Positions 14,314 to 46,879 of a stretch of 64,000 nt of DNA are shown piece by piece. Numbering within the stretch: the stretch's first letter is position 1; each line of letters starts with the position of its first letter. Source of the DNA: an uncultured Bordetella sp. (GTDB lineage Bacteria; Pseudomonadota; Gammaproteobacteria; Burkholderiales; SG8-41); the NCBI GenBank assembly GCA_964486865.1, contig CAZAOZ010000010.1, positions 6,255 through 70,254 of the forward strand, given 5' to 3'. The notes under the pieces were generated by a model that ran no database searches, was not told where the DNA came from, and saw only the letters and a list, made by a program, of their open reading frames with translations. The position numbers and the translations under genes are program-made.

Positions 14314-15513
14314 GTGGGCTCCGCACCGCAAGGTGCCGCACATGGCACGACGATGGGTTGGCATGAAGTTGCCAGCCCGTCATTGTTGTGGCGCAGTGCC
14401 GATTGCCTGCCCCTGTCAGCACAAGGATGCCAACTCTGCGCCGAGGCTTGCCCCGCAGGCGCCTTGACGATCAGCGCGGGGGTTCCTGCAGCCTCGTCCC
14501 AATGCACAGGCTGCGCCCGTTGCACGGCAGCATGCCCTACCGATGCGCTGCAGATGAAGGATTTCCCGGCGCCTGTCGCACCCACCGCAACAGGCAGCGC
14601 GGTCTTCATTGACTGCATGAAAGTTCCACAGGCGATGAGCCCCGCCGGCACTGTTCGGGTGCCGTGCATGGGCGGCCTCTCGCCGGGATGGCTGCTCACC
14701 CTGCAGGATCGCATCGGCAACGCTCCAATCACCGCGCTTGATCGTGGCTGGTGCGCGCATTGCAGCGCCGGCGACTCATCGTCATTCAGCGCCACCAGTC
14801 TGCTTGCCAGTGCGACACGACTGCTGAAGGACGCGGGCGCGCCAGCGGACATGCTGCCGCGGAGCGAGCATCGGCCGCTGCCATTGTCACGGATGCCCGA
14901 TGCGATCCCGCCTTCGATCAATGAAGCAGCCGTTTCACGTCGCGCCTTCTTTACCCGGACCCTTTCTGAAATGGCGAGTGCCGTCGCCAACCGCCGTCAA
15001 CCGGAAGGAATCAGGCATTTTCCCCGTCTGTCTCCGCTCCGCACCCTGGGCCGTGTCGTGCCTGCCGAGCAGGTTCGACGCGTAACAGCGCTCTCGAACA
15101 TCAGCCATCGCTATCGCACTTCGCCAGCGACATTCAATCTGCCCGCAGTGGCGATTTCGCGGGAACGGTGCGAGAACCACCAGGTATGCGCCGTGACGTG
15201 TCCTACCAGTGCGCTCACAAAATACGGACACGAAGGCACCACAGGTATCCGCTTCAATGCGTTGTTGTGCATCGGATGTCGCCAATGCGAGCGTGGATGC
15301 CCCGAACAGGCAATCCGGCTGTCGCTGTTTAACGAGACCCCATCACACGCCATGGAAATAAACCTGACCAATCATCAAGTCAATGTGTGCGCGACTTGCG
15401 AGGATGAGTTTTCAGGCATCCCCGGCGACGTATGCACTGCTTGCCGCAAGACCGAAGCGCTATTCGCAGGACGCGCGACATTGGACAAATCGATAGGCAA
15501 ACCAGCAGCTTGA
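14314..15513 (+). CDS. multi-cluster 4Fe-4S ferredoxin-domain protein (ArxB'-like first gene of the molybdoenzyme operon)
   Basis: 399 aa from GTG 14314, preceded by AAGGAGA. CxxCxxCxxxCP-type motifs: CQLCAEACP, CTGCARCTAACP, CENHQVCAVTCP, CIGCRQCERGCP. C-terminal CATC...CTAC pair. Confidence 0.7.
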   Translation: MGSAPQGAAHGTTMGWHEVASPSLLWRSADCLPLSAQGCQLCAEACPAGALTISAGVPAASSQCTGCARCTAACPTDALQMKDFPAPVAPTATGSAVFIDCMKVPQAMSPAGTVRVPCMGGLSPGWLLTLQDRIGNAPITALDRGWCAHCSAGDSSSFSATSLLASATRLLKDAGAPADMLPRSEHRPLPLSRMPDAIPPSINEAAVSRRAFFTRTLSEMASAVANRRQPEGIRHFPRLSPLRTLGRVVPAEQVRRVTALSNISHRYRTSPATFNLPAVAISRERCENHQVCAVTCPTSALTKYGHEGTTGIRFNALLCIGCRQCERGCPEQAIRLSLFNETPSHAMEINLTNHQVNVCATCEDEFSGIPGDVCTACRKTEALFAGRATLDKSIGKPAA

Positions 15514-15534
15514 ACTGCACAGGAGGTACTGATC

Positions 15535-18024: not shown

Positions 18025-18070
18025 TCCCTGGTCATCAACGAATGCGCTGAATGAGAAAAGGAGAATAACC

Positions 18071-18832
18071 ATGGCCCGCTGGGGAATGGTAATTGATCTG
18101 GAAAAATGCACTGGCTGCCAGGCCTGCTCCACCGCCTGTTCGATGGAAAATTCCAGACTGCCCGGTGAGAACTGGCAGGACGTGCTGTTTTACAATGAAG
18201 GCGAGTATCCAAGCGGAAAACTGACATGGTTGCCGCGGCCGTGCATGCACTGCGAGGAAGCATCATGTGTTACGGTGTGTCCGACCAAGGCGACATACAA
18301 GGACAAGGACGGCTTCGTACTCATCAACTGGGATCTCTGCATTGGCTGCAAATACTGCATGATCGCCTGCCCCTACGGCGTCCGGTTTTATGCCGAGGAA
18401 AAGCAGAAGACGCAGCCCGACGTGCGCAAGGTCTGGCCCAGCAGCGAAGGCAACGTCTGGGATCCGCCCTGGGCAATGCCGAAGCATCTGCATGATCCAC
18501 AGCATGGTGTTGGCGTGCAGCCGCGAAATGTGGTCTCCAAGTGCACCTTCTGCTACCACCGTGTCAGCAAGGCGCCCAAGGGCACGCCGGACCTGGATCC
18601 GAACGATCCGAAAACGCGTGACTACACACCGGCCTGCGTCGTTACCTGCGCGCCAACTGCGCGCTACTTCGGCGATCTCGACAACCCGAAGAGCCACGTA
18701 CGCAAGCTGATTGCCGAAAAGCGGGGCGTCCGGCTGCAGGATCACACCGGCAACCGTCCCCAAGTCTACTACCTGGCAGGCGAAGCGGCATCCATACCGG
18801 AAACGCGCTCCACCCGCATGAAGAAAAGTTAA
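18071..18832 (+). CDS. arxB: 4Fe-4S electron-transfer subunit (DmsB/PsrB/ArxB-like)
   Basis: 253 aa. Four ferredoxin cysteine groups: CTGCQACSTAC, CMHCEEASCVTVCP, CIGCKYCMIACP, CTFCYHR...CVVTCP. Confidence 0.75.
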   Translation: MARWGMVIDLEKCTGCQACSTACSMENSRLPGENWQDVLFYNEGEYPSGKLTWLPRPCMHCEEASCVTVCPTKATYKDKDGFVLINWDLCIGCKYCMIACPYGVRFYAEEKQKTQPDVRKVWPSSEGNVWDPPWAMPKHLHDPQHGVGVQPRNVVSKCTFCYHRVSKAPKGTPDLDPNDPKTRDYTPACVVTCAPTARYFGDLDNPKSHVRKLIAEKRGVRLQDHTGNRPQVYYLAGEAASIPETRSTRMKKS

Positions 18833-18844
18833 GGGAGAGGAATC

Positions 18845-20035
18845 ATGAGCATACTTGCAATGAGAACACCCGACGGCCGGCCGCTGCTCGACCTGCAAAC
18901 GAAACCCGACGGAATATCGGCACTGATGATGATCGGCGGCGCAATTGTTGCCGGCGTCAGCCTTTCCATCGTTTTGTTCATGCTGTTCATGGAAGGCCAC
19001 GCCGCATACAACACCTCCAGCGATTTCCCGTGGGGAGCGCCGATTGCTTTTTACATGTTCTTTCTGCTCGCCTCCTCGGGGCTGTCGATCATATCTTCTC
19101 TCGACACGGTCTTCGGCCTTAATACCTTCTACCCGATTGTCAAACGCTGCATCTGGCTGTCGATCATTACGCTGGTAGCAGGTTTCACGCTGCTCGCACT
19201 GGAGCTTGGCAATCCGTTTCGCCTGCTATGGGCGGTGCCGATTGCCGCTCAGGTTAAATCGCCGATGTGGTGGATGGGCACTTTTTATTCAATAGATCTG
19301 GCATTGCTGTGCCTGAAGTTTTACTTCCTGCACACGGGCGAATGGAACAGCAAACGCATGCACTTGATTTCGATCAACTCGTTCATAATCTGCATCCTGG
19401 CCTCCGGCACGCTCGGACTCACGTTCGGCATGATGGCCATGCGACCGGCTTGGTACAGCCCGGTCATGCCCATGTATTTCATCCTGACCGGCTTTATGAC
19501 GGCGGTGGCATTCATCGTCTTCTTTACCGGCCTGATCCGCCGGGTCAACGGCACACCGGAAAATGTACGTAAACTTTTTGATGAAGTCCTGCCGCGTCTG
19601 TTTTTTGTCACCCTGCTGGCGGTAGTTGTGATGCGGGTCGGTCAAATCGTCACCGGACTGTGGAGCAATTTCGAAGGTATGGAAGCTCACTGGCGGGCGT
19701 TGACATCAGTCATGTTTCATATCGAAATCTGGATCGGATTAGCAATCCCGCTGGTATTGATGAGTAGCCGCGAACGGCGCACCAAAGTGACGATCCAGAT
19801 GGTCTCGGCACTGCTTTTCATGATCGGCATTTTCTCGGCACGATTGCACCTGCTGATCATGGGCCAGGAAGTACCATTATTCCGGGGCTACTGGGCGGGT
19901 TATGTCGAATACACCCCGTCATTCACCGAGTGGCTGCTGATTCCGGCAGGCTTCGGCATCGTCTTCATGTTATATGGTGCAGGCAACTGGTTGCTGAATC
20001 TGTCCGAACACCGTGAACCGACAACTGTACACTGA
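18845..20035 (+). CDS. arxC: NrfD/PsrC-family integral-membrane quinone-interacting subunit (ArxC-like)
   Basis: 396-aa polytopic hydrophobic ORF immediately after the FeS subunit, with an AGGGAGAGG Shine-Dalgarno. Confidence 0.7.
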   Translation: MSILAMRTPDGRPLLDLQTKPDGISALMMIGGAIVAGVSLSIVLFMLFMEGHAAYNTSSDFPWGAPIAFYMFFLLASSGLSIISSLDTVFGLNTFYPIVKRCIWLSIITLVAGFTLLALELGNPFRLLWAVPIAAQVKSPMWWMGTFYSIDLALLCLKFYFLHTGEWNSKRMHLISINSFIICILASGTLGLTFGMMAMRPAWYSPVMPMYFILTGFMTAVAFIVFFTGLIRRVNGTPENVRKLFDEVLPRLFFVTLLAVVVMRVGQIVTGLWSNFEGMEAHWRALTSVMFHIEIWIGLAIPLVLMSSRERRTKVTIQMVSALLFMIGIFSARLHLLIMGQEVPLFRGYWAGYVEYTPSFTEWLLIPAGFGIVFMLYGAGNWLLNLSEHREPTTVH

Positions 20036-31010: not shown

Positions 31011-31355
31011 ATGCAGTTGAAACTTGCAGTGTTGTGCTGCGCCTGCGCAGCGTTCTGGTTGTCACCCGCGATGGCGCAACAGCGCACGAACGCCAATCCC
31101 GCGGATCCGCGGGCTGAAGTACCTCCCGCGCGCTACCAGTCGGCATTCACCGGCTATCAGTCGTTTCGCGATGAAAAGCTCGCGCCCTGGCGCGAAGTCA
31201 ATGACGAAGCCGCGCGCGTCGGCGGCCATACCGGCATCTTCGGCGGCGGCGCGCACACCGGCCATGGCGCCACCAAACCCGCCGCCGGCACGCCCGCGCC
31301 TGCAGCAGCACCGCATGCGATGCATGGCAAGGACCATAAAGGAATGACCAAATGA
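31011..31355 (+). CDS. small exported protein of unknown function, translationally coupled to the TolC-family gene
   Basis: Signal peptide MQLKLAVLCCACAAFWLSPAMA and a His/Gly-rich C-terminus. Its stop overlaps the next ATG (ATGA at 31352-31355). Confidence 0.5.
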   Translation: MQLKLAVLCCACAAFWLSPAMAQQRTNANPADPRAEVPPARYQSAFTGYQSFRDEKLAPWREVNDEAARVGGHTGIFGGGAHTGHGATKPAAGTPAPAAAPHAMHGKDHKGMTK

Positions 31356-32791
31356 ATCCATCAACACAACAACAGTCCGGACGCCCGGCGCGCGTGATCG
31401 CCGCGGCGGTCGCGCTCGCCTTGCTGGGCGGCTGCGCCTCGCTCTCCGAGGACGGCGGCTTCAGTTCCGTGCAAAGCGCAGCGAGAGAACGCGGCATCAA
31501 TCAGGACATGCCATGGATCAAGACTGAGCAGGATGCCGGTAACGCCCGCGTATCGGTCAGAAAACTGCTGGCTGCGCCGCTGACCGCGGATACCGCCGTA
31601 CAGATCGCGTTGATCAACAACCGCGGGCTGCAGGCCACCTACTCCGAGCTCGGCATTGCCGAAGCCGACGTGGTACAGGCCGGACGGCTGCGCAATCCGG
31701 GTTTTTCTTTCGGACGCTTCACCCGCGCGGACGAAGTGGAGATCGAGCGCACTTTTCTGTTCGACATCCTCGGCCTGATTACCATGCCGATCCGCACCGA
31801 TCTGGAAAAGCGGCGCTTCGAGCTGACCAAAGGCCGCGTCGCAATGGAAGCGCTGCAGGTGGCCGCCGATACCCGCCGCGCGTACTTCAGCGCAGTCGCC
31901 GCGCAGGAAGCCGTCAAATACATGGAGCAAGTCAGGATGGCCGCGGAAACCAGCGCCGAACTGGCACGCCGCATGGCTGCTGTCGGCAACTTCAGCAAGC
32001 TCGACCGGGCGCGCGAGCAGGTGTTTTATGCCGAAACGACGGCACAACTTGCGCGCGTCAAACAACAAACACTGGCCGAGCGCGAACGACTCACGCGACT
32101 GATGGGCCTGTGGGGCGAGGACATCGCTTTCAAACTGCCCGAACGCCTGCCCGACCTGCCGAAATCAGCACCGGACATCGCCAACCTGGAAGCAACGACG
32201 CTGAAGCAACGCCTCGATGTGCAAGGCGCGATGCAGGAAGCGGAAAACCTCGCCGCTTCGCTCGGCCTGACCAAGGCAACCGGTTTCATCAATGTCATTG
32301 AGGTCGGATATTCACGCATCAGCGAAACCCATGAGCCGCGAAAATCCGGCTACGAAATCGAGTTGCGGCTGCCGATATTCGACTGGGGCGGCGCCCGCGT
32401 CGCCCGCGCCGAGCATACCTACATGCAGGCGGTAAACCGCGCCGCCGACATCGCAGTCAGGGCCCGTTCCGAAGTGCGTGAGGCGTACGCCGCCTACCGC
32501 ACGACGTACGATCTGGCGCGTCACTACCGCGACGAGATTGTGCCGCTGCGAAAACGCATCTCCGAAGAAAATCTGCTGCGTTACAACGGCATGCTGATCG
32601 GCGTATTCGAGCTGCTCGCCGATGCCCGCCAGCAGGTGGCCGGCGTCAACGCCTACATCGAGGCCCTGCGCGATTACTGGCTCAGTGAAACCAATCTGAA
32701 TCTCGCGCTGACCGGCAAGTCACCGGGCGCCATGAGCGTCGGCAGCAGCAGCGCCCAAGCCGCTGCCGGCGACGCCCAGCCCGGCCACTAA
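31352..32791 (+). CDS. TolC-family outer-membrane efflux lipoprotein
   Basis: 479 aa with lipobox LLGGC and two OEP repeats. Confidence 0.8.
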   Translation: MNPSTQQQSGRPARVIAAAVALALLGGCASLSEDGGFSSVQSAARERGINQDMPWIKTEQDAGNARVSVRKLLAAPLTADTAVQIALINNRGLQATYSELGIAEADVVQAGRLRNPGFSFGRFTRADEVEIERTFLFDILGLITMPIRTDLEKRRFELTKGRVAMEALQVAADTRRAYFSAVAAQEAVKYMEQVRMAAETSAELARRMAAVGNFSKLDRAREQVFYAETTAQLARVKQQTLAERERLTRLMGLWGEDIAFKLPERLPDLPKSAPDIANLEATTLKQRLDVQGAMQEAENLAASLGLTKATGFINVIEVGYSRISETHEPRKSGYEIELRLPIFDWGGARVARAEHTYMQAVNRAADIAVRARSEVREAYAAYRTTYDLARHYRDEIVPLRKRISEENLLRYNGMLIGVFELLADARQQVAGVNAYIEALRDYWLSETNLNLALTGKSPGAMSVGSSSAQAAAGDAQPGH

Positions 32792-32810: not shown

Positions 32811-34193
32811 ATGACCTCACGTCGCAATTTTCTACGTACTGCCGGAGGCGCCCTGCTGGGCGCCGCTGCAGTCAGCAAAGCCGCCCAGGGCGCCGTGCCC
32901 GAGGCGCCGATGCAGACCAAACCCGACATGCAGCAACCGCTGATGCCGCCGAACGGCCGCCCTTACCAACCGGTGGCGACACTCAACGGCTGGACGCTGC
33001 CGTGGCGCATGAACAACGGCTGGAAGGAATTCCACCTGATCGCCGAGCCGGTGCGCCGGCAGATGGCGCCGGGCATGACTGCACACCTGTGGGGCTACAA
33101 CGGCCAGTCGCCGGGACCGACGATCGAATGCGTCGAAGGCGACAAGGTGCGCATTTTCGTCACCAACAAGCTGCCCGAGCACACGACGATCCACTGGCAC
33201 GGCATCCTGCTGCCCAACGGCATGGACGGCGTCGGCGGGCTGAACCAGCCGCAGATTCCGGTCGGCAAGACTTTCGTCTATGAATTCGAGATGAAAAAGT
33301 CCGGCACCTTCATGTATCACCCGCATGCCGATGAAATGGTGCAGATGGCGATGGGCATGATGGGCTTTTTCGTGGTTCATCCGAAGAACCCGAATTTCAT
33401 GAAAGTCGATCGCGATTTCGTGTTTCTGATCAATGCCTACGACATCGCGCCCGGCGCCTATACGCCGAAAATCGCCACCATGACGGACTTCAACCTGTGG
33501 TCATGGAACAGCCGCGTGTTTCCCGGCATCGACCCTTTCGTCGTCAGCAAAGGCGACCGGGTGCGCATCCGTTTCGGCAACCTGACCATGACCAATCATC
33601 CGATCCACATGCACGGCTACGACTTCGAGGTCACCTGTACCGACGGCGGCTGGGTGCCGAAGAACGCGCGCTGGCCGGAAGTGACGGTGGATGTAGCGGT
33701 CGGCCAGATGCGCGCTTTCGAGTTCGTTGCCGACGCGCCGGGCGATTGGGCGATCCATTGCCACAAGTCGCACCACACCATGAACGCCATGGGCCACGAC
33801 GTGCCGACCATGATCGGCGTCGATCACCGCGGTATCGCGCAGAAAATCATCAATCTGGTACCCGACTACATGGTGATGGGCGAACGCGGCATGGCCGACA
33901 TGGGCGAGATGGAAATGCCGATTCCCGACAACACGCTGCCGATGATGACGGGCACCGGACCGTTCGGCCCGCTGGAAATGGGCGGCATGTTCAGCGTGGT
34001 CAAGGTGCGCGAAGGGCTGGCGAAAAACGACTACAAGGATCCCGGCTGGTACAAGCATCCGCCAGGCACGGTCGCTTACGAGTGGACCGGAGCGGCGCCT
34101 GTGGCCGCGCGACCCGCACCAGCCGCCCCCGCCCGCGCAGCCGCACCCACGCGTGAGTTGCGCGTGCGCAAACCTGCAACACACCAACATTAA
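32811..34193 (+). CDS. Tat-exported multicopper oxidase
   Basis: 460 aa with Tat signal MTSRRNFLRTAGGALLGAAAV. Copper-ligand motifs HWHG, HPH, HPIHMHG and HCHKSHH. Confidence 0.9.
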   Translation: MTSRRNFLRTAGGALLGAAAVSKAAQGAVPEAPMQTKPDMQQPLMPPNGRPYQPVATLNGWTLPWRMNNGWKEFHLIAEPVRRQMAPGMTAHLWGYNGQSPGPTIECVEGDKVRIFVTNKLPEHTTIHWHGILLPNGMDGVGGLNQPQIPVGKTFVYEFEMKKSGTFMYHPHADEMVQMAMGMMGFFVVHPKNPNFMKVDRDFVFLINAYDIAPGAYTPKIATMTDFNLWSWNSRVFPGIDPFVVSKGDRVRIRFGNLTMTNHPIHMHGYDFEVTCTDGGWVPKNARWPEVTVDVAVGQMRAFEFVADAPGDWAIHCHKSHHTMNAMGHDVPTMIGVDHRGIAQKIINLVPDYMVMGERGMADMGEMEMPIPDNTLPMMTGTGPFGPLEMGGMFSVVKVREGLAKNDYKDPGWYKHPPGTVAYEWTGAAPVAARPAPAAPARAAAPTRELRVRKPATHQH

Positions 34194-34215: not shown

Positions 34216-34695
34216 ATGAAACAAATAGTTGCGATGATACTTCTCGGCGGCCTCCTGTCCGGTCACGCGTGGGCGCACGGCGATCCGAAGAAACCCTCGG
34301 CGAAAAAAGCTGTTGCCGAAGAAAAGGCCTTCGGGCGCGAAGGTGATCCCAAAAAAGTCACCCGTACCATTCAGGTGGACATGACCGACACCATGCGCTA
34401 TTCGCCGATGGAAATTACCGTCCAGCGCGGCGACACCGTGCGCTTCGTCGCGAAGAACTCCGGCAAGGTCATGCACGAAATGGTGCTCGGCACACTGCCG
34501 GAGCTGAAGGAACATCTCGAACTCATGAGAAAACACCCGGGCATGGAACACGATGAGCCGCACATGGCGCACGTGAAACCCGCCAAAACGGCGCAAATGG
34601 TGTGGGAGTTCACCAAGGCCGGTGAGTTCTACTACGGCTGCCTGATGCCGGGGCACTTCGAGGCCGGCATGATCGGCAAAGTCATCGTCAGGTAA
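34216..34695 (+). CDS. exported cupredoxin-fold copper protein (CopI/plastocyanin-like)
   Basis: From ATG 34216: signal peptide, then type-1 copper ligand pattern ...H...YGCLMPGHFEAGM at the C-terminus, plus a Met/His-rich loop. Confidence 0.8.
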   Translation: MKQIVAMILLGGLLSGHAWAHGDPKKPSAKKAVAEEKAFGREGDPKKVTRTIQVDMTDTMRYSPMEITVQRGDTVRFVAKNSGKVMHEMVLGTLPELKEHLELMRKHPGMEHDEPHMAHVKPAKTAQMVWEFTKAGEFYYGCLMPGHFEAGMIGKVIVR

Positions 34696-34854: not shown

Positions 34855-35187
34855 ATGAAACTCAAAATCATCACCCCCCTTGTGCTCGCCCTGATCATGC
34901 CGGCCGCGGGTTATGCAGTCGAAGCGCATCACCAGCCGGCCGCCGCTGGCGCCGCAAACTCAGTGCCGATGAGCGACGGCGAAGTGCGCAAAGTCGATAA
35001 AGAGACGCAAAAGGTCACCATCAAGCACGGCCCGATCGAGAATCTGGGCATGCCGGCGATGACCATGGTGTTCCGTGTATCCAATCCCGCCATGCTCGGC
35101 CAGTTGAACACAGGAGACAAAGTCCGGTTCTCGGCCGACAAGGTTGGCGGCGTGTACACGGTGACCAAAGTCGAAATTGCAAAATAG
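34855..35187 (+). CDS. cusF: CusF-family periplasmic Cu(I)/Ag(I) binding protein
   Basis: 110 aa with signal peptide. KVTIKHGPIENLGMPAMTMVFRV matches the CusF metal-site signature. Confidence 0.85.
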   Translation: MKLKIITPLVLALIMPAAGYAVEAHHQPAAAGAANSVPMSDGEVRKVDKETQKVTIKHGPIENLGMPAMTMVFRVSNPAMLGQLNTGDKVRFSADKVGGVYTVTKVEIAK

Positions 35188-35274: not shown

Positions 35275-35919
35275 ATGGAGAATGAACACTATATTCCGCC
35301 GCTCCGTTACAGATGGCTGACCCGGCTCTATGATCCGGTCGTGCATTGGACCACGCGCGAGGCTGCGTTCAAGCAGGCCCTTGTGGCGCAGCTCGCGGGC
35401 GCTCGCCCGCGCCGCGTTCTTGACTTGGGATGCGGCACCGGCACGCTCACCATCGCGATTGCCAGCTCCATGCCGGATACCGCAGTCGCCGGGCTCGACG
35501 CAGACCATGAGGCGCTCAAAATCGCTGCCGGCAAGGCCCGGCGCTCGGCGGTCAAGATAGAACTGCATCAGGGATTCAGCGATGCGCTGCCTTTCGAAAA
35601 TGCCCGATTCGATGGCGTGGCAAGCAGCCTGTTTTTCCACCATCTCACGCGCGAAGCAAAGCTGGCTGCGCTACGGGAAGTGCGTCGGGTACTCGCCCCC
35701 GGGGGCCTGCTGCACATCGCTGATTGGGGCAAACCGGAAAATGTCCTGATGCGCTGCCTTTTCTTCCCCGTCCAGTTGCTGGATGGCTTCGAAACCACCC
35801 GGGACTCGGTCATCGGCGCATTGCCTGAACTGATGCGGAAATCCGGATTTCCGGAAACCGCCGAAACCGCAAGCTTTGCCACGCCGCTGGGCACGATGCG
35901 CCTGCACCGGGCAGCGTAG
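35275..35919 (+). CDS. class I SAM-dependent methyltransferase (cytoplasmic)
   Basis: 214 aa with motif I VLDLGCGTG and post-I DADHE. No signal peptide. Confidence 0.8.
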   Translation: MENEHYIPPLRYRWLTRLYDPVVHWTTREAAFKQALVAQLAGARPRRVLDLGCGTGTLTIAIASSMPDTAVAGLDADHEALKIAAGKARRSAVKIELHQGFSDALPFENARFDGVASSLFFHHLTREAKLAALREVRRVLAPGGLLHIADWGKPENVLMRCLFFPVQLLDGFETTRDSVIGALPELMRKSGFPETAETASFATPLGTMRLHRAA

Positions 35920-35957: not shown

Positions 35958-36094
35958 CTCAAGCATGAGAAACCGCACTGCAACAACGGATTTCACGCGA
36001 GATTTCCCGTGCGCCCTGTTCGCGCCTGTCATGGCTGTTGCCGTGACACTGCGAAGCCGGCATGATCGGCAAAATCAACGTAACCGCGAGGTGA
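35958..36094 (+). pseudogene. decayed 3' fragment of a second cupredoxin gene copy
   Basis: 36033-36081 (ggctgttgccgtgacactgcgaagccggcatgatcggcaaaatcaacgt) aligns with 34636-34688 of the intact gene (ggctgcctgatgccggggcacttcgaggccggcatgatcggcaaagtcatcgt). There are indels and an internal stop. Confidence 0.6.
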
Positions 36095-36098
36095 TGAC

Positions 36099-36539
36099 AT
36101 GACCAACAGACGCACTTTCATGCTGGCGCTCTCCGCTGCTGCAATTTCAGGAGCGGTGTCCGCCGCACAACCGCCGCAGGTGGATGTTTATCTCAACCCG
36201 ACGTGAGGCTGCTGCGGCGCGTGGATGGATCATCTGCGCGCCAACGGCTTCCGGGTGAAGTCGATTGCAGTCGAAGATACCGGTGTCGAGCGCCGGCGCC
36301 GCGGCATTCCCGATGAGCTCGGCGGCTGCCATACCGCGGTGGTGGATGGTTACGCCATCGAAGGCCATGTGCCGGCACGCGAAATCAAACGCCTGCTGGC
36401 CGAACGTCCGGTCGCCGCCGGCCTCGCCGTGCCGGGCATGCCGGCCGGCTCGCCCGGCATGGAGGGCACACGCACCGACCGCTACAACGTACTGCTGGTG
36501 GACAAGCGTGGCCGTTATTCCGTTTACGCCCGTTACTGA
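36099..36539 (+). CDS. copG: DUF411/CopG-family periplasmic copper protein interrupted by one in-frame TGA at 36204-36206 (candidate selenocysteine codon, otherwise a nonsense pseudogene)
   Basis: ATG 36099 is preceded by GAGG. Signal peptide MTNRRTFMLALSAAAISGAVSA. The frame continues through the TGA into track ORF 36225..36539: VDVYLNPT-TGA-GCCGAWMDHLRANGF...GGCHTAVVDGYAIEGHVP...VPGMPAGSPGME. Confidence 0.6.
36216..36242 (+). other. hairpin 10 nt downstream of the in-frame TGA (candidate bacterial SECIS)
   Basis: ggcgcgtggatg-gat-catctgcgcgcc: a 12-bp stem (10 Watson-Crick + 2 G-U) with an apical loop beginning with G. Confidence 0.35.
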
Positions 36540-38582: not shown

Positions 38583-38900
38583 ATGGATACGGAAAGCCTG
38601 AAAAGCCTGGTCTGGCTGGTGGTCTGGGGCGGCCTGTTCTACGTGATGATGCGCTACGGCTGCGGCGCGCACATGATGGGAGGTCACAGTCATGGCGGTC
38701 GCCCTGACCGCGAACCCGCAGCAGCGGATGGCACCAAAGATCCCGTATGCGGAATGCCGGTTGATCCGAGCCATGCAAAAGCAGCATCGGTGCATGGCGG
38801 CAGAATCTATTACTTCTGTTCGGCTTCCTGCCGGGAAAAATTCGAGCAGAACCCCGCCAAATTCGTCTCAACCCGATCACAGGAGGCGCATCATGAATAA
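38583..38900 (+). CDS. membrane-anchored YHS/TRASH-domain metal-binding protein
   Basis: N-terminal TM segment with an HMMGGHSHGG stretch. C-terminal DPVCGMPVDPSHAKAASVHGGRIYYFCSASCREKFEQNP matches the YHS domain. Confidence 0.75.
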   Translation: MDTESLKSLVWLVVWGGLFYVMMRYGCGAHMMGGHSHGGRPDREPAAADGTKDPVCGMPVDPSHAKAASVHGGRIYYFCSASCREKFEQNPAKFVSTRSQEAHHE

Positions 38901-39159
38901 ACTCGACTGGCGTGTTGTGGGTCTCGCCGCAGGCTTTTTCCTGATGACCAGCTATGTCATCTGCGTGGCCGGCGACCTTGTGTTCGACCATCGCATGTAC
39001 GAAGTTTGGCTGAAGCTCCTGCCCGGATTTACCTGGCTGACCTGGCCCAGCTTCCTGCTCGGGCTGCTCGAAACGTTCCTCTACGGTATTTATTTCGGCC
39101 TGGTGTTTGCTCCTTTGTACAACTTTTTCCAGAGCTGGCTGTCGCCGCAAGGCAGATAA
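38893..39159 (+). CDS. small two/three-TM membrane protein of unknown function
   Basis: ATG 38893 overlaps the end of the YHS gene. MNKLDWRVVGLAAGFFLMTSYVICVAG...GLLETFLYGIYFGLVFAPLYNFF. Confidence 0.5.
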   Translation: MNKLDWRVVGLAAGFFLMTSYVICVAGDLVFDHRMYEVWLKLLPGFTWLTWPSFLLGLLETFLYGIYFGLVFAPLYNFFQSWLSPQGR

Positions 39160-39175
39160 GGCCCGGCATGGGCGC

Positions 39176-39700
39176 ATGCCGATGAGCATGGATCAGGGTT
39201 TGGCAAAAACGGGCATCATCGCGCGCGCCGGCCTGTGGTCCGCGCTCGCCTTCGCACTGAATCTGGCGTGGGAAATCGCCCATGTCAGGCTCTATACCCT
39301 CTGGGACGAAGCGAACCGCATGAGCATCGCGCAGGCCTTGGTGCATTGCTCACTGGGCGATGTTGCGATCGCACTCACGCTGTTCGCGCTGGCCGGCATT
39401 GCGCTGCGGCAGGAAGACTGGCCGGTATTCCGGCCGTGGGCCGGCAGCGTCATCGTCGTCACCGGAGCCATGGCGTTCACCGCGTGGAGCGAATGGTATA
39501 ACGTGTATCAGGCCGGCAACTGGGGCTATACGGCAAGCATGCCGGTGATTTACGGCATCGGTCTTTCCCCGTTGCTGCAGTGGCTGGTGCTGCCGCCATT
39601 GCTGACCATCGCCTACCGGGCGCTGCGGCTGCGGTGGTCCGACCGGCGCAGCACGCCAGACCCGATACCGGCACGCGATGTTACGGAGCCCCGAAAATGA
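39176..39700 (+). CDS. polytopic membrane protein of unknown function, translationally coupled to the ATPase gene
   Basis: Hydrophobic ORF from about ATG 39176. Its stop overlaps the copA ATG (ATGA at 39697-39700). Confidence 0.5.
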
Positions 39701-41874
39701 AAGCGGACGTGAAGCATTCCCCCCATGCACACGCTCACGATCACGGACACGCGGGGCCTGCAGCGACCGCAGCCCAGTGGACATGCCCGATGCATCCGGA
39801 GATCCTGCGCGATGCCCCCGGCGACTGCCCGCTCTGCGGCATGGCGCTGGTACCTGTCGCCGGCACTGCCGAAGCGGACGACAGCGAACTGCGCGACCTG
39901 ACACGGCGACTGTGGATCGGCGCCGCGCTGTCGATTCCGCTGATCATCCTCGCCATGTCGCCGATGGTCGGCATCATGGAGCCCTTCGGCCTGCGGCCGC
40001 GAACGCGCGGCTGGATAGAGTTCGTGCTCGGCACCCCCGCGGTGCTGTGGGTCGGCTGGCCTATCCTGCGCAAATTCTGGCTGTCGCTGGCGCACCGCGC
40101 GCTCAACATGTATTCGCTGATCGGACTGGGCGTGGGGCTCGCCTACTTGTTCAGCCTGTTTGCAATTTTTCTGCCCGACCTGTTTCCGGTTGAATTCCGC
40201 GAACATGACGGCGCCGTGGGCACTTATTTCGAAGCGGCAGCAGTCATCGTGACGCTGGTGATCCTGGGTGACGTGCTGCAGTTGCGCGCCATGGGTCAGA
40301 CCAGCCAGGCGATCCGGGAACTGCTGCAGCTCGCGCCCAATCTCGCGTGGCGCCTGCGCAAAGACGGCACCGAGGAACAGGTGGCGCTTGAATCCGTCGT
40401 GGTCGGCGACCGGCTGCGCGTGAAGCCCGGTGACAAGGTGCCGGTGGACGGCACCGTGCTCGACGGTGCGAGCCGGGTGGACGAATCCATGCTCACCGGT
40501 GAGCCGGTGCCGGTGGCCAAGGCTGCCGGCGACCGGGTGACCGGCGCCACCATCAACGGCAGCGGCGCGCTGGTCATGCGCGCCGAACGCGTGGGTTCGG
40601 ATACGCTGCTCGCCAAAATCGTGCATATGGTGGCAGAGGCGCAGCGCACGCGCGCGCCGATCCAGCGGCTCGCCGACCTGATCGCAGCCTGGTTTGTACA
40701 GGTCGTGGTGGCGATTGCCGTGGTGACGGCGCTGGTCTGGTGGCTCATGGGGCCGGAACCGCGGCTCACCTATGCGCTGCTCAACGCCATCGCCGTGCTG
40801 ATCATCGCCTGCCCCTGCGCGGTCGGGCTGGCCACGCCGATTTCGATGACGGTGGCCATGGGCGAAGGCGCCCGCGCCGGCATCCTGTTCCGCAATGCCG
40901 AGGCCATCGAGCGCATGCGCGACATCGACACCGTGGTCGTGGACAAGACCGGCACGCTGACCATGGGCAAACCGGCACTCACCGATTTTGCCGCAGCCGG
41001 CATGCCGGAGAACGAGGCGCTGGCGCTGATGGCGGCGGTGGAGCAGTTGTCCGAGCACCCCATCGCACATGCCGTCGCCCAGGGTGCGCAAGCGCGCGGA
41101 CTCGTGCTGCAGCCTGCCACGGCGTTTGACGCCGTCAACGGCTTGGGCGTCCAGGCGGTGATTGATGGCCGAACAATCCTCGTCGGCAGCCGCGATTTCC
41201 TGAAGCGAAACGGCATCGATACGCAAAGCTGGGAAGCGCAGGCGGAGAAACTGCGCGCCGAGGCCAAGACGGTGGTCTTCCTTGGCATGAACGGCACCGC
41301 CGCCGGTATCGCGGCAGTCGCCGACCCGATCAAGGACAGCACGCCCGAGGCCATTGCCGCCCTCAAGCGCTCCGGCGTGCGCATCGTGATGCTGACCGGC
41401 GATTCGCGCCGCACTGCCGAGGCGGTCGCGCGCCATCTTGGCATTGACGAAGCCCTGGCCGAGGTGCTGCCGGAAGACAAGGCGGGACATGTCAAACGCC
41501 TGCAGTCTGCCGGCCACAAAGTCGCCATGGCCGGCGACGGCATCAATGATGCCCCGGCTCTCGCCCAGGCCGACGTCGGCATTGCGATGGGCACCGGCAC
41601 CGATGTCGCCATGGAAAGCGCGGGGGTGACTTTGGTAAAAGGGGATTTGCGCGGCATCGCCCGCGCTGCGGTGCTGTCACGCGCCACCATGCGCAATATC
41701 CGGCAGAACCTGATGTTTGCCTTCGGTTACAACGCGCTGGGCATCCCGATTGCCGCGGGCGTGCTGTATCCCGGGTTCGGCATATTGCTGTCGCCCATAT
41801 TCGCCGGGGCCGCGATGGCGCTCAGTTCCGTTTCCGTCGTGACCAATGCCCTGCGGCTCAGGCGCAAAGGGTAA
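39697..41874 (+). CDS. copA: P1B-type copper-translocating ATPase
   Basis: 725 aa from ATG 39697. His-rich start plus a CPMHPE...CPLCGM N-terminal metal-binding domain. TM CPC motif [24 protein letters not shown] and GDGINDAP. Confidence 0.9.
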
Positions 41875-42837: not shown

Positions 42838-43182
42838 ATGAATAGCAAGAGCTTCTTGATGACCGCAGGCAGTCTGTTTTTCGTCATCGCCATTACTGCC
42901 TCCACCCGTGCCGCCGACGTCGATGCCGACGCCGCACAGGCCCTGGCCAAGAAAAGCAACTGTCTGAAATGCCATGCGATCGACAAGAAAAAAGATGCGC
43001 CGTCCTTCAAGGAAACCGCCACAAAAAACAAGGGCAAGGCCGACGCCGAGGACAAGATCTACAAACACCTGACCACCAACCCCAAGGTCAAGGTTGACGG
43101 CAAGGAAGAAACCCACGACTCGCTGAAAACCAAGGATGACAAGGAAATCCGCAACGTCGTGCGCTGGATCCTGAGCCGTTGA
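42838..43182 (+). CDS. mtoD: periplasmic monohaem class-I cytochrome c (MtoD-like)
   Basis: From ATG 42838: signal peptide and a single CLKCH haem motif. About 114 aa. Confidence 0.6.
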   Translation: MNSKSFLMTAGSLFFVIAITASTRAADVDADAAQALAKKSNCLKCHAIDKKKDAPSFKETATKNKGKADAEDKIYKHLTTNPKVKVDGKEETHDSLKTKDDKEIRNVVRWILSR

Positions 43183-43207
43183 CCGCGCATCCCTGGGAAA
43201 AACAAGG

Positions 43208-43822
43208 ATGATCCGCAAATGGTGGAAAAACCTGCAGGAGCGCTGCAAGACCTGCTCCCGGGTCACCCTGACCGCAGGCGTGGTCATCACCGCACTGGTC
43301 GTCGCCGGCCTGTTGATGACCGCCGGTGCCGCCGGCCTTGCCTGGACCAACACCGAGCAGTTCTGCATCGGCTGTCACGAGATGAAGGACAACGTGTACG
43401 CCGAATTCAAGGGCACCATCCACGATACCAACCGTTCCGGCGTGCGCGCCATCTGCTCCGACTGCCATGTGCCGCGCGAGCCGGGGCCGATGCTGGTACG
43501 CAAGGTCAGCGCCACGTTCGAGCTGTGGGGACATTTCGTCACGGGCGTGATCGACACCAAGGAAAAATTCCAGGCGCATCGTCCCGCAATGGCCCACCGC
43601 GTGTGGGAGCGCATGCTCGACACCGATTCGCTCGAATGCCGCAACTGCCACAAGCGTGATGCCATGAGCGCGGACAAACAGTCCGAGAAGGCGCGCAGCC
43701 GCCACGCCAAGGCGCAAAAAGAGGGTCAGACCTGCATCGAATGCCACTACGGCATCGCCCACGGGGAGCCGGACGGCATCGGTCCGCAGGAACTCAAAGA
43801 GGCACGGTTGAAGAACAAGTAG
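43208..43822 (+). CDS. cymA: NapC/NirT/CymA-family membrane-anchored tetrahaem quinol dehydrogenase
   Basis: 204 aa with an N-terminal TM helix. Four CxxCH motifs: CIGCH, CSDCH, CRNCH, CIECH. Confidence 0.85.
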   Translation: MIRKWWKNLQERCKTCSRVTLTAGVVITALVVAGLLMTAGAAGLAWTNTEQFCIGCHEMKDNVYAEFKGTIHDTNRSGVRAICSDCHVPREPGPMLVRKVSATFELWGHFVTGVIDTKEKFQAHRPAMAHRVWERMLDTDSLECRNCHKRDAMSADKQSEKARSRHAKAQKEGQTCIECHYGIAHGEPDGIGPQELKEARLKNK

Positions 43823-43877
43823 CGGTAATGGACAACGCGGGCTCGCCCGCACATCGTCAACAACGAGGTACGACGAC

Positions 43878-44840
43878 ATGAAACCAGGATCTGCGATCAT
43901 CACCCTGCTGAGAAGCTTGGCCTTTGCCGCGCTCCTCGCCTTCACATCACAGGTCGCCGTTGCGCAGGACGCGGCAAAAGCGCCGCGCAAGGACATGGTG
44001 CTCAAGGGCGACGCGCAATGTACGCGCTGCCACGACGAGACCGAAGAATTCCCGGTGCTGGCCATCGGCAAAACCAAGCACGGCACGGTGGCCGACAAGC
44101 GCACGCCCACCTGCACCAGTTGCCACGGGGCCAGCGAAACCCACGTCAACAAACCTGCCAACGCCAAGGAGCGTCCGAAGCCCCAGCGCGTATTCAGCAA
44201 AAAAGGCGACACACCGCCGGAAACCCAGAATGCTGCCTGCCTGACCTGCCATCAGGGCGGCAAGCGCACGCACTGGCAGATGAGCCTGCACGCCAGCCGC
44301 GACACCACCTGCACCTCCTGCCACCAGGTGCATACGGGCCACGACAAGGTGCGCGACAAGCAGCAGCAGGCGGAAGTCTGCTACACCTGCCACAAGGAAC
44401 AGCGCGCGCAGATGTTGCGCCCGTCGCGCCACCCGGTTCCCGAAGGCAAGGTGACCTGCTCCGATTGCCACAATGCGCACGGCTCGGCAGGCCCGAAAAA
44501 CCTGGTCCGCGATAACGTCAACGACACCTGCTACACCTGCCACATGGAAAAACGCGGCCCCTTCGTCCGCACCCACCAGCCGGTGCAGGAAGATTGCTCG
44601 ATCTGCCACAACCCGCACGGGACAACCACGCCGAATCTGTTGAAGACCCGGCCGCCGTTCCTGTGCCAGCAGTGTCACGAACCCGCCGCACACGCCAACA
44701 ACCCAGGAGTATTTACAGCCCCCGGTGCCACCACCTCAACCGCCAACCTGGTGGCGCGGGGCTGCGTGAACTGCCATACCAACATTCACGGCACCAACAA
44801 TCCGATCAATGCCACCGGCGAACGGGTGTTCCGTCGCTGA
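43878..44840 (+). CDS. mtoA: periplasmic decahaem c-type cytochrome (MtrA/MtoA/PioA family)
   Basis: 320 aa with signal peptide. Ten CxxCH motifs counted: CTRCH, CTSCH, CLTCH, CTSCH, CYTCH, CSDCH, CYTCH, CSICH, CQQCH, CVNCH. Confidence 0.85.
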   Translation: MKPGSAIITLLRSLAFAALLAFTSQVAVAQDAAKAPRKDMVLKGDAQCTRCHDETEEFPVLAIGKTKHGTVADKRTPTCTSCHGASETHVNKPANAKERPKPQRVFSKKGDTPPETQNAACLTCHQGGKRTHWQMSLHASRDTTCTSCHQVHTGHDKVRDKQQQAEVCYTCHKEQRAQMLRPSRHPVPEGKVTCSDCHNAHGSAGPKNLVRDNVNDTCYTCHMEKRGPFVRTHQPVQEDCSICHNPHGTTTPNLLKTRPPFLCQQCHEPAAHANNPGVFTAPGATTSTANLVARGCVNCHTNIHGTNNPINATGERVFRR

Positions 44841-44860
44841 CCGGTAGACAGGAGACGATC

Positions 44861-46879
44861 ATGAACAAACATGCACGCTGCGCGATCCGTCTGACCGCAA
44901 TCACCGCGGCCGTACTCGGGGCTTTCGGGCCGGCTGCTGCTGCCGAAGACGACGACATCAAGGCGCTGACCAAACCCGAAAGCAACATCGAGTTCGGCGT
45001 CGGCATCACGGATAACGACGGCAAGCGCTTCGGCCTCTACAACGGCATGAACGAAAACAAGACCTACGGACTGCTCGGCGGCAGGCTGATCCGCCGTGAC
45101 GACGACACTGGCACCTGGCTGACGCTCAGCGGCAGCAACCTGGGGCTGGACACGCGCCAGTTGCGCTTTGAACACAACCGCCAAGGCAACTGGGGCTATT
45201 TCATCGAGTATGACGAGATCCCGCGCTTCAATCCCTACACCGTGAACACCGGACTCACCGGCATCGGCAGCGCTACCCAGACCCTCGGCAACGGCACCAC
45301 CCCCCGGCGGGACGTCGATCTGGAAACCAAGCGCAAGGCCATGACTCTCGGTTTCAGCAAAATACTGCCGACCGGCTTCGACGTGCAGGTGCGTTTCCGC
45401 AATGAGGACAAGGACGGTTCTCGGCAATGGGGTCAGGGCACATCGAACACCGTCAACTTTCTGGTCGATCCGATCAACCAGACTACCCGCCAGCTCGACA
45501 TCATCCTGGGATACACCAGCGAAAAACTGCAACTCTCCGGCGGTTATTACGGCACAACATTCGACAACAACGATGGCGCACTGAATATCCCCAACAGCAC
45601 CGTGTTCACGCAAATGGCGCTGCCGCCCGGAAATCAATCGCATCAACTGTATTTGTCCGGCGGCTACAGCTTCACGCCGACCACGCGCGGCACCTTCAAG
45701 GTGGCCTACGCCAAGGCGACCCAGAACGAGGCCTTTATCAACATCCCGACGCTCAACAACCGTCGCGACCTCGGCGGCGCCATCGATACCACGCAAGTAC
45801 AAATGGGCATCACGGCGCGCCCGCTGCCCAAGCTGTCGCTGCTGGGCAATCTGCGCTTTGAGGACCGTGATGACCGGACGCCGATTGTCCAATACACCAC
45901 CGCCGGTAGCTCTCTGAACGGCAATAACGAACCACGCTCCATCCGTACGCTGGCCGGCAAGCTGGAGGCCAGTTACGCCCTGCCCATGAACCTCCGGCTG
46001 ATCGGCGGCGTCGATTACGAAGAGAAAAAACGCAACACCAGCCCCGTGCGTATCGTCAGCTACCGCGACACGACCGAGGAAACGACCTACCGCGCGGAAC
46101 TGCGCCGTTCCATTTCCGACACGCTGACCGGATCTCTCAGCTACCTCTACAGCGACCGCGGCGGCTCGGATTTCATTACGACGACCCAATTAAGTGGAGC
46201 GGCCGGCAGCAACCGGATTGCACCGATTTACCTTGCCGACCGCGAACGCCACAAGGTGCGTGTAACCGCCAACTGGCAGGCCACGGAAAAGCTGTCCCTG
46301 CAGTTCAGGGTGGACGATTCGCATGACAACTATGGCCAGCGCCCCGGTAACGGCGTCACTCCTGCCGGAACCGCCTTGGGTCCGCAAAAAGGCCAAGCTA
46401 CGGGGTATTCAGTGGATGCCGCGCTTGCCCTCAATGACCGGTGGCAGGCTACCGCCTGGGCATCCCGTGACGACATGCGCTACGAACAACTGTTCCGCAC
46501 GACGGTCTTTTCGTACAAACAGCGCAACCTCGGTGATGCACTCGGCCTGGGCATCCGCGGCAAACCTTACAGTTGGCTGGAAGTCGGCGCGGATTTCAGC
46601 CAGTCCGACATCACCGACGAAAACCGCCAGCAGGCGCTGGCCGGCGCCGCGATCAATGTGATTCCGGATATCGCCACCAAGCTGACCAAGCTCAAGCTGT
46701 TCGCGAATTACACTGTGAAAAAAGATATCACCCTCCGCGCCACCTACATCTACGACCGGTTCAGCACGGACGACTGGACCTGGGACCGGTGGACTTACTC
46801 GGACGGCACGCGGGTGATGGCCAGCCCGACCCAGGAAGTCCATTTCATTGGCTTCACCATCAACTACCGCTTCCGTTAA
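44861..46879 (+). CDS. mtoB: outer-membrane beta-barrel porin partner of the decahaem cytochrome (MtrB/MtoB family)
   Basis: 672 aa from ATG 44861 (GGAGA upstream). Signal peptide ...AFGPAAAAED. Alternating beta-strand pattern and C-terminal ...FIGFTINYRF aromatic terminus. The track's upstream extension to 44594 overlaps mtoA. Confidence 0.8.
   Translation: MNKHARCAIRLTAITAAVLGAFGPAAAAEDDDIKALTKPESNIEFGVGITDNDGKRFGLYNGMNENKTYGLLGGRLIRRDDDTGTWLTLSGSNLGLDTRQLRFEHNRQGNWGYFIEYDEIPRFNPYTVNTGLTGIGSATQTLGNGTTPRRDVDLETKRKAMTLGFSKILPTGFDVQVRFRNEDKDGSRQWGQGTSNTVNFLVDPINQTTRQLDIILGYTSEKLQLSGGYYGTTFDNNDGALNIPNSTVFTQMALPPGNQSHQLYLSGGYSFTPTTRGTFKVAYAKATQNEAFINIPTLNNRRDLGGAIDTTQVQMGITARPLPKLSLLGNLRFEDRDDRTPIVQYTTAGSSLNGNNEPRSIRTLAGKLEASYALPMNLRLIGGVDYEEKKRNTSPVRIVSYRDTTEETTYRAELRRSISDTLTGSLSYLYSDRGGSDFITTTQLSGAAGSNRIAPIYLADRERHKVRVTANWQATEKLSLQFRVDDSHDNYGQRPGNGVTPAGTALGPQKGQATGYSVDAALALNDRWQATAWASRDDMRYEQLFRTTVFSYKQRNLGDALGLGIRGKPYSWLEVGADFSQSDITDENRQQALAGAAINVIPDIATKLTKLKLFANYTVKKDITLRATYIYDRFSTDDWTWDRWTYSDGTRVMASPTQEVHFIGFTINYRFR

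Follow-up and report, generated by a model that had tools for sequence, protein, structure and literature searches.

We analysed a 64,000-nucleotide stretch of contig CAZAOZ010000010.1 from an uncultured Bordetella sp. (hereafter the window) and focused on a gene that is interrupted in frame by a TGA codon. The gene lies on the forward strand at positions 36099..36539 and comprises 146 codons, including the in-frame UGA at codon 36 (36204..36206), with its stop codon TGA at 36537–36539. The interrupting UGA occupies position 1 of a U-G-C-C sequence that corresponds to the C-x-C-C motif of the copper protein CopG, a member of the DUF411 family. We consider it very likely that this UGA is a genuine selenocysteine (Sec) codon with a functional selenocysteine insertion sequence (SECIS), and that the gene encodes a Sec form of CopG/DUF411. 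The retention of TGA in 35 distinct sequences, the coding character of both flanks, the SECIS geometry of a downstream hairpin and constraint at the RNA level support the Cys-to-Sec reading put forward in the initial annotation of this stretch. As described in two papers (PMC7558416, PMC8456105), CopG-like proteins are periplasmic, adopt a thioredoxin fold and hold a tetranuclear copper cluster via the CxCC motif and two Met residues; they aid copper resistance, above all under anaerobic conditions, and their proposed role is either Cu(I)/Cu(II) interconversion or the handing over of copper to other proteins.

The start codon at 36099 is preceded at a distance of 7 nt by a Shine-Dalgarno-like GAGG (36088..36091, forward strand). 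The N-terminal peptide read from this ATG, MTNRRTFMLALSAAAISGAVSA, precedes the mature domain, and the frame upstream of the TGA as a whole (codons 1–35, 36099..36203) encodes MTNRRTFMLALSAAAISGAVSAAQPPQVDVYLNPT. This segment is composed of a signal peptide containing TNRRTFM, which resembles a twin-arginine motif, and ending in an AxA-type site (VSA), followed by the conserved first strand, VDVYLNPT. Past the TGA, the same frame continues from VDVYLNPT into GCCGAWMDHLRANGF, later reads GGCHTAVVDGYAIEGHVP and then runs through GLAVPGMPAGSPGME up to 36537–36539; the TGA at 36204–36206 is the only one inside the frame. Gene calling recovers only the distal part, as an open reading frame (ORF) of 104 amino acids at 36225..36539 on the forward strand (P0001), which matches the DUF411 profile. 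The start codon, the single TGA, the called ORF and the read-through product are thus all as originally claimed. The same annotation had assigned the protein a signal peptide of the general secretory (Sec-pathway) type. An N-terminal signal peptide is indeed present, but it carries an RRxF twin-arginine motif, as judged by eye, so that the export signal looks Tat-like (twin-arginine translocation) rather than plainly Sec-type. The pattern RRxF[ILMV] occurs in the signal peptides of 13 of 21 Sec forms, including the window (36099–36164) and its equivalents in L002, L008, L012–L019 and L092, which suggests export by the Tat rather than the general secretory pathway. The forms from Gemmatimonadota and Anaerolineae have Sec-type or lipoprotein-like signals instead of twin-arginine ones.

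For searches of family databases with the 146-residue product, a Cys was placed at the TGA position. The read-through product matched Pfam DUF411 (PF04214) with an E-value of 1.1e-26 and 92.7 bits, against a cut-off of 27. It also aligned with chain A of PDB 6WIS (Pseudomonas aeruginosa CopG) at an E-value of 8e-33, residues 25–146 of the product falling on residues 2–123 and covering the whole mature length. Both results bear out the claim that a complete DUF411/CopG-type protein is encoded. In the structure-based sequence, the window TGA falls opposite the first Cys of C-G-C-C, confirming that the stop lies exactly on this residue of the CxCC motif; the same column is Cys in 53 Cys-form ORFs found by tblastn and in 111 distinct Cys forms. 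Positions 3 and 4 of the motif are Cys in the window gene and position 1 is the UGA codon. The C-x-C-C motif would be complete only with Sec or Cys decoded at this codon, a reading that the comparative data strongly favour. The His and Met motifs CH[TS], EGHVP and MPxGSPGM are present in GGCHTAVVDGYAIEGHVP and VPGMPAGSPGME and align with those of 6WIS, and the first-strand motif VDVYLNPT is homologous to VYK.P. of the Cys forms. Sequence, motifs and signal peptide, together with the gene context, place the predicted product in the CopG/DUF411 family. The only defining feature of the family that is not literally there is the first Cys, which has UGA in its place. The Pfam DUF411 model consists of 48 positions and covers residues 75–121, wholly downstream of the UGA, and because of this the truncated ORFs still score as complete DUF411 proteins. 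CopG of P. aeruginosa was reportedly characterised by Hausrath et al. in 2020 (PDB 6WIS/6WJE).

Were the TGA a one-base change from TGC in this strain alone, as the initial annotation offered as its alternative, close relatives would all be expected to carry TGC. This is not the case. Among the best 120 protein clusters, 18 were only 104–106 amino acids long, 81–85% identical to the window protein and started at the Met eight codons past the TGA (P0001, P0029, P0031, P0039, P0045, P0050, P0061, P0062, P0069–P0071, P0088, P0091, P0097, P0105, P0115, P0117 and P0120). In the DNA behind three of these truncated clusters and the window's own cluster, every contig contained an ORF of 34–35 codons that ended at a TGA 18 nt ahead of the called gene and in frame with it. 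The product of this short upstream ORF is a divergent signal peptide that leads into ...VYLNPT. Four further assemblies of the window's own sequence (L093–L096) also have the TGA. In a scan of GTDB with one genome per species, from which the best 80 loci were taken, the CxCC codon was TGA in 15 loci and TGC or TGT in all others. Eleven of the 15 belong to metagenome-assembled genomes of Burkholderiales type (63–77% identity), two to further betaproteobacterial ones, and one each to a metagenome-assembled genome of Anaerolineae and of Gemmatimonadota. A metagenome scan that used the Gemmatimonadota form as the query identified TGA in 17 of 69 loci, several additional sequence types among them. 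Pooling these sets gave 35 distinct TGA (Sec) sequences and 111 distinct Cys sequences, with TGA forms reaching down to about 50% protein identity. The frame relation across the TGA is invariant in all 35, and in each of the 21 Sec forms examined an in-frame start codon and signal peptide of 30–40 codons precede it. In a rough neighbour-joining tree, the TGA forms fell into about nine groups, corresponding to eight parsimony changes.

These data bear directly on two alternatives. The first is a TGC-to-TGA nonsense mutation that has made a pseudogene, or else a sequencing or assembly error in this strain. TGA is one substitution away from TGC, and such an event is the default reading of any single interrupted gene. 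However, the TGA recurs in the four other assemblies and in the 35 distinct sequences, coding constraint is evident on both flanks, and the hairpin is constrained at the RNA level. We regard this explanation as extremely unlikely, and the nonsense mutation is effectively refuted by the conservation data. The second alternative is that translation stops at the UGA and restarts at ATG 36225 to give an independent, truncated DUF411 domain in the cytoplasm, the 35-residue peptide being a separate product or useless. This would agree with the output of gene callers, which give a 34–35-amino-acid ORF and a 104–106-amino-acid ORF, and with the ATG at codon 8 after the UGA in the window. Several Sec forms, however, have ATC or GTC in place of this ATG (five in the main clade, L021, L022, L026, L042 and L092), and the G-C-C residues as well as the six codons from the UGA to the ATG are conserved and in frame. 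The product of such a restart would lack both signal peptide and cluster motif and would leave a conserved signal peptide stranded on a 35-mer, and the invariant frame relation also speaks against it. We judge this possibility very unlikely. Because the TGA, its flanks and the signal peptides are conserved, nonsense mutation, assembly error and stop-and-restart are all very hard to sustain, and the ORF 36225–36539 is an annotation artefact of ending the upstream frame at the UGA.

A very close Sec/Cys pair, L117 (position 1031, TGA) and L166 (position 687, TGC), shares 89% protein identity. Relative to L117, the Cys form L166 has a Leu-to-Val change (CTG to GTG) that disrupts pair 21:31 of the stem described below. 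Codons 16–22, directly past the hairpin, have strongly diverged between the two, and the remainder of the gene is nearly identical. An all-against-all tblastn comparison for Sec/Cys pairs across 1.4 Mb of loci left the CopG TGA as the sole site once off-frame noise had been filtered. The plasmid collection contained only Cys forms, at about 70% identity, and provided no cultured host of a Sec form. One JGI protein, P0002 (L092, 155–919), reads W at both the Sec codon and the genuine TGA stop and so appears as an artificial DUF411-CusF fusion; the W residues arise because the contig was translated with a code in which TGA is Trp, and the DNA has TGA.

Immediately downstream of the UGA we identified a SECIS-type hairpin on the forward strand (36216..36242), in which 36216–36227 pair with 36231–36242 around the loop GAU (36228–36230). 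The stem has 12 bp, of which 10 are Watson-Crick and two are G-U, and the apical loop begins at 21 nt after the UGA. The pairing and SECIS geometry given in the initial annotation hold, but the distance from the UGA to the start of the stem is 9 nt instead of 10 nt. The hairpin alone folds at -19.4 kcal/mol. The 60-nt stretch reaches -29.8 kcal/mol, with z = -2.9 relative to dinucleotide shuffles, and only one of 200 shuffles was as stable. The consensus for bacterial SECIS elements (bSECIS) specifies an upper stem of 4–16 bp, an apical loop of 3–9 nt whose first two positions include a G, a UGA-to-loop distance of 16–37 nt and a minimum free energy of at most -7.5 kcal/mol (PMC13188914); the window hairpin falls within every one of these limits (12 bp, GAU, 21 nt, -19.4 kcal/mol). 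A strict bSECIS test demanding a perfect stem was passed by 17 of 21 Sec forms vs 2 of 65 Cys forms. Folding of the 63 nt that follow the codon gave mean energies of -28.9 kcal/mol for Sec forms and -18.1 for Cys forms (p = 1e-9). In the Gemmatimonadota form, the hairpin is unrelated and has 8 bp, the loop GGU and a spacing of 17 nt. No Rfam family matched at gathering thresholds, and only chance-level matches appeared at E <= 10.

The stem could be a by-product of the codons for GAW...LRA, as the initial annotation cautioned. This proved true in part, since a weaker version exists in Cys forms, but synonymous constraint and covariation were seen only in the Sec forms, in which helix positions are also paired more often. 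In the main Sec clade (19 sequences, mean protein identity 75%), the fraction of synonymous differences was 0.13 in the 19 codons past the UGA vs 0.46 elsewhere; three Cys groups had no such dip, with values of 0.53/0.55, 0.52/0.60 and 0.41/0.52 for the same regions. Helix positions were paired in 83% of cells in Sec forms vs 49% in Cys forms, and, among proteins with W..H[LM]R, in 88% vs 54%. For the Ala codon within the stem, 27 of 29 Sec forms use GCG, and the few Cys forms with Ala at this position use GCC. The clearest case of covariation is stem pair 22:30, in which the first base of a Met/Ile/Val codon is coupled with the third, synonymous base of the His codon. Across the 35 distinct Sec forms, this pair is A-U in 19, G-C in 14, A.C in two and G.U in none (Fisher 5e-8), and in the 32-sequence alignment the A-U and G-C counts are 18 and 11; no association was found among the 111 Cys forms (p = 0.53). 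A further compensatory change, from G-C to U-A, is found in L042. The synonymous constraint, the more frequent helix pairing and the 22:30 covariation of the Sec forms indicate that an RNA structure is under additional selection in the TGA forms only.

A second conserved hairpin follows at 36245..36263 on the forward strand (CGGCUUC-CGGGU-GAAGUCG). Its 5' arm can alternatively pair with 36205–36211 (GAGGCUG) and thereby form a lower stem around the UGA, which is paired in 95% of cells in the 35 Sec forms vs 74% in the 111 Cys forms. The suppression of synonymous change extends to about codon 19 past the UGA. Double-sided covariation was found neither for the second hairpin nor for the lower stem. 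The second hairpin and the lower stem are both compatible with the data, and either arrangement could have a role.

Several observations weigh against the interpretation of the UGA as a Sec codon with a functional SECIS. The stem is partly forced by conserved amino acids (G/A-A-W ... H-L-R), and the nearest Cys forms that share these amino acids, such as L023, L025 and L033, retain a weaker, mismatched stem. The double-sided covariation rests mainly on the single pair 22:30, and the sequences are phylogenetically related, so that the shuffle and Fisher statistics overstate their independence. Four of the 21 Sec forms fail the strict test owing to an internal mismatch or a loop without an early G. 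In L014 and L022, an internal A.C mismatch leaves a 9-bp stem with no G among the loop's first two positions, and L021 has an 11-bp stem with the loop CAGUC, again lacking a G in these positions. No canonical SECIS was found in two Chloroflexota-type TGA forms (L066, 10019–10108; L162, 211–300); these may use an atypical element or may be decaying genes. Finally, tblastn with E. coli SelA, SelB and SelD identified no selA, selB or selD either in the 64-kb window or among the fetched loci, which total about 1.7 Mb, and ARAGORN reported 0 tRNAs in the window and no tRNA-Sec (selC) in the fetched loci. The two Chloroflexota-type forms have the sequence GCCGDW[SI][DE]YM... in common.

In a third alternative, the main rival still standing, the UGA is recoded to Cys, Trp or another residue, through read-through dependent on the hairpin or a SelB-like factor, and yields either a normal C-x-C-C CopG or some variant. 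The conserved TGA, coding flanks and constrained hairpin demonstrate recoding but do not specify which residue is inserted, and neither the 64-kb window nor the fetched loci contained the Sec machinery. Some Actinobacteria have been proposed to recode UGA to Cys by means of SelB-like factors. Against this, the UGA lies exactly on a Cys of a redox or metal-binding motif and Cys homologues are abundant, which is the defining Sec/Cys signature of selenoprotein surveys, and the hairpin fits the geometry of SelB-type bSECIS elements. It is also hard to rationalise why about nine clades would bear the cost of such a system just for Cys, which a single mutation to TGC would supply. We consider recoding to a residue other than Sec unlikely and retain Sec as the probable residue at codon 36. 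The Sec/Cys-pair tblastn over 1.4 Mb of loci found no second selenoprotein gene nearby, and a scan of the window for read-through ORFs based on GC content at third codon positions returned only off-frame noise and missed even the CopG TGA site.

On the basis of these comparisons, the following sequence of events can be proposed for the Sec form. The gene would be co-transcribed with the upstream genes for multicopper oxidase, cupredoxin and CusF on the same strand. Acting as a bacterial SECIS, the hairpin 36216–36242 would recruit SelB-GTP-Sec-tRNA(Sec) at the UGA of codon 36, and after insertion of Sec, translation would go on to the stop at 36537. The resulting precursor of 146 residues would be exported via its N-terminal signal peptide with the RRxF twin-arginine motif and would yield a mature thioredoxin-fold protein with U-G-C-C in place of the C-G-C-C of CopG. 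In CopG, C-G-C-C together with a Met pair (MPAGSPGM) holds the tetranuclear copper cluster, and U-G-C-C would stand at this site here. Because C-G-C-C is also a CxxC motif, Sec would occupy its N-terminal nucleophilic position (UxxC). The selenolate may act as a copper ligand, as the redox nucleophile of the proposed Cu(I)/Cu(II) oxidoreductase, or as both. About as likely as not is a natural copper-selenolate cluster in which the Sec selenolate would replace a bridging or terminal Cys thiolate of the tetranuclear site. If such a cluster exists, it would be the first case of Sec ligating a multinuclear copper site, and this in an exported protein that may use Tat. The exchange of Cys and Sec across about nine clades would then mark the first CxCC position as a catalytically limiting redox residue, and CopG would be an enzyme (a Cu(I)/Cu(II) or thiol oxidoreductase) rather than a chaperone.

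The putative Sec-CopG can be compared with several known systems. With P. aeruginosa CopG and Rhodobacter capsulatus CutG, it shares the thioredoxin-like layout, the position of x-G-C-C, CH[TS], EGHVP and the Met pair of MPxGSPGM, as well as an N-terminal export signal and linkage to genes for a multicopper oxidase, CusF, RND efflux and a P-type ATPase. It differs from these proteins, all of which have Cys as described, by the UGA and SECIS-type hairpin at the first C-x-C-C position and by the nucleotide-level constraint, in Sec forms, on A-W-[MVI]-x-H-L-R around the motif. Thioredoxin-fold selenoproteins with UxxC (Sec-thioredoxin, Sec-glutaredoxin, DsbA-like, DsbG-like and thiol:disulfide interchange proteins) similarly have Sec in place of the N-terminal Cys at the start of helix 1 (PMC13188914), abundant Cys homologues and a SECIS just downstream inside the coding region. 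The motif here is U-x-C-C, however, and in the Cys family it holds a Cu4 cluster and not merely a disulfide. Sec at a predicted metal-ligand position is also found in predicted selenoproteins of heavy-metal homeostasis, namely a CopZ-like (2Fe-2S)-binding protein, a YHS-domain protein, an SO_0444-family Cu/Zn efflux transporter, an E1-E2 cation ATPase (UxxC), and MerT-like and MerB-like proteins. These belong to other folds and families, and none is a periplasmic CopG-type cluster protein; they come mostly from anaerobic Desulfobacterota or Firmicutes, whereas Sec-CopG comes from metal islands of Burkholderiales type. The window hairpin resembles the SECIS elements of E. coli fdhF and fdnG and the bSECIS model in being a stem-loop 3' of the UGA within the ORF, with a small loop that begins with G and a 21-nt spacing, and in the possible lower stem containing the UGA itself. 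It differs from the fdhF/fdnG elements in its unrelated sequence, its perfect 12-bp upper stem, its 3-nt loop and the absence of a bulged U, and its SECIS role is predicted.

New bacterial selenoprotein families are reported regularly. A catalogue of May 2026 lists 119 prokaryotic selenoprotein families and subfamilies (PMC13188914), among which DUF411, PF04214, CopG and UxCC do not appear. In the literature searched, no paper was found that joins DUF411 with selenocysteine, PF04214 had no matches, and neither had Gallionellaceae together with selenocysteine; for CopG and selenoproteins, only papers on eukaryotic COPG came up. The BSepDB and deep-Sep papers name neither DUF411 nor CopG, and no model of NCBIfam release 20 matches the protein. 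The truncated ORFs carry the GenBank label "DUF411 domain-containing protein". The searched literature and NCBIfam thus agree with the earlier belief that a Sec form of this family had not been described, and Sec-CopG is apparently an uncatalogued selenoprotein version of CopG, although supplementary tables of selenoprotein surveys may already list it. It has been overlooked in part because the 48-position Pfam model lets the truncation pass as a complete match.

Roughly one in four or five of the sampled CopG-like genes is a TGA form, and this form is annotated everywhere as truncated DUF411. If the Sec assignment is right, a widespread family would be added to the bacterial selenoproteome (Burkholderiales-type, Gemmatimonadota-type and other lineages), and selenium use would be tied to periplasmic copper resistance, a link missing from the current catalogue. 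A full-length DUF411 model with a Sec-aware rule would mend many database records. Since selection for Sec is usually limited to catalytic redox positions, its recurrence at position 1 of CxCC gives a direct and testable hint of redox catalysis by that residue. The Sec form would also offer a direct handle on the choice between the two roles debated for CopG, copper oxidoreductase and copper-transfer protein.

The Sec-CopG gene of the window is part of a large metal-resistance island that contains, in order, two RND efflux systems, an outer-membrane factor, a multicopper oxidase, a cupredoxin, CusF, an S-adenosylmethionine (SAM) methyltransferase, Sec-CopG, a YHS-domain protein and a copper P-type ATPase. 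Based on the ORFs, a Pfam scan and the Pfam annotation of identical contigs, the genes upstream of Sec-CopG were localised to 31352–32791 (outer-membrane factor), 32811–34193 (multicopper oxidase), 34216–34695 (cupredoxin), 34855–35187 (CusF) and 35275–35919 (SAM methyltransferase), all on the forward strand. Downstream and on the same strand, the ORFs and the annotation of identical contigs place the YHS-domain protein at 38583–38900 and the copper P-type ATPase at 39697–41874; between these two genes, within 38583..41874, a DUF5676 protein and then an unknown protein of 174 amino acids are encoded, also on the forward strand. A promoter and terminator scan around the Sec-CopG gene yielded nothing informative. 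In every locus examined, Sec-CopG is located within a copper-resistance cluster; genes for a multicopper oxidase, a cupredoxin, CusF, RND systems and a P-type ATPase surround it in the window and in L001, L002 and L008, and in other genomes the Sec form is found beside CusCBA/CusF or beside multicopper oxidase, cupredoxin, CusF and glutaredoxin genes. The gene directly upstream varies: it encodes the SAM-dependent methyltransferase in the window (35275–35919) and a 130-amino-acid glutaredoxin-domain protein in the L002–L007 lineage (6223–6615 in L002). The latter protein could be a redox partner.

Two further clusters of redox genes lie in the window. Between the two RND systems, at 14314–20035, we identified a four-gene molybdopterin oxidoreductase cluster, with no in-frame TGA inside it, whose subunits are a ferredoxin-like protein of 399 amino acids, a Mo-pterin protein of 829, a 4Fe-4S protein of 253 and an NrfD-type membrane protein of 396. 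After the copper island, positions 42838–46879 encode a cytochrome c, a NapC/NirT-type tetrahaem protein, a multihaem cytochrome and an MtrB/PioB-type porin. This cluster, which also follows the copper island in L001 and hints at a host akin to Gallionellaceae, resembles an Mto-type module for extracellular electron transfer or iron oxidation.

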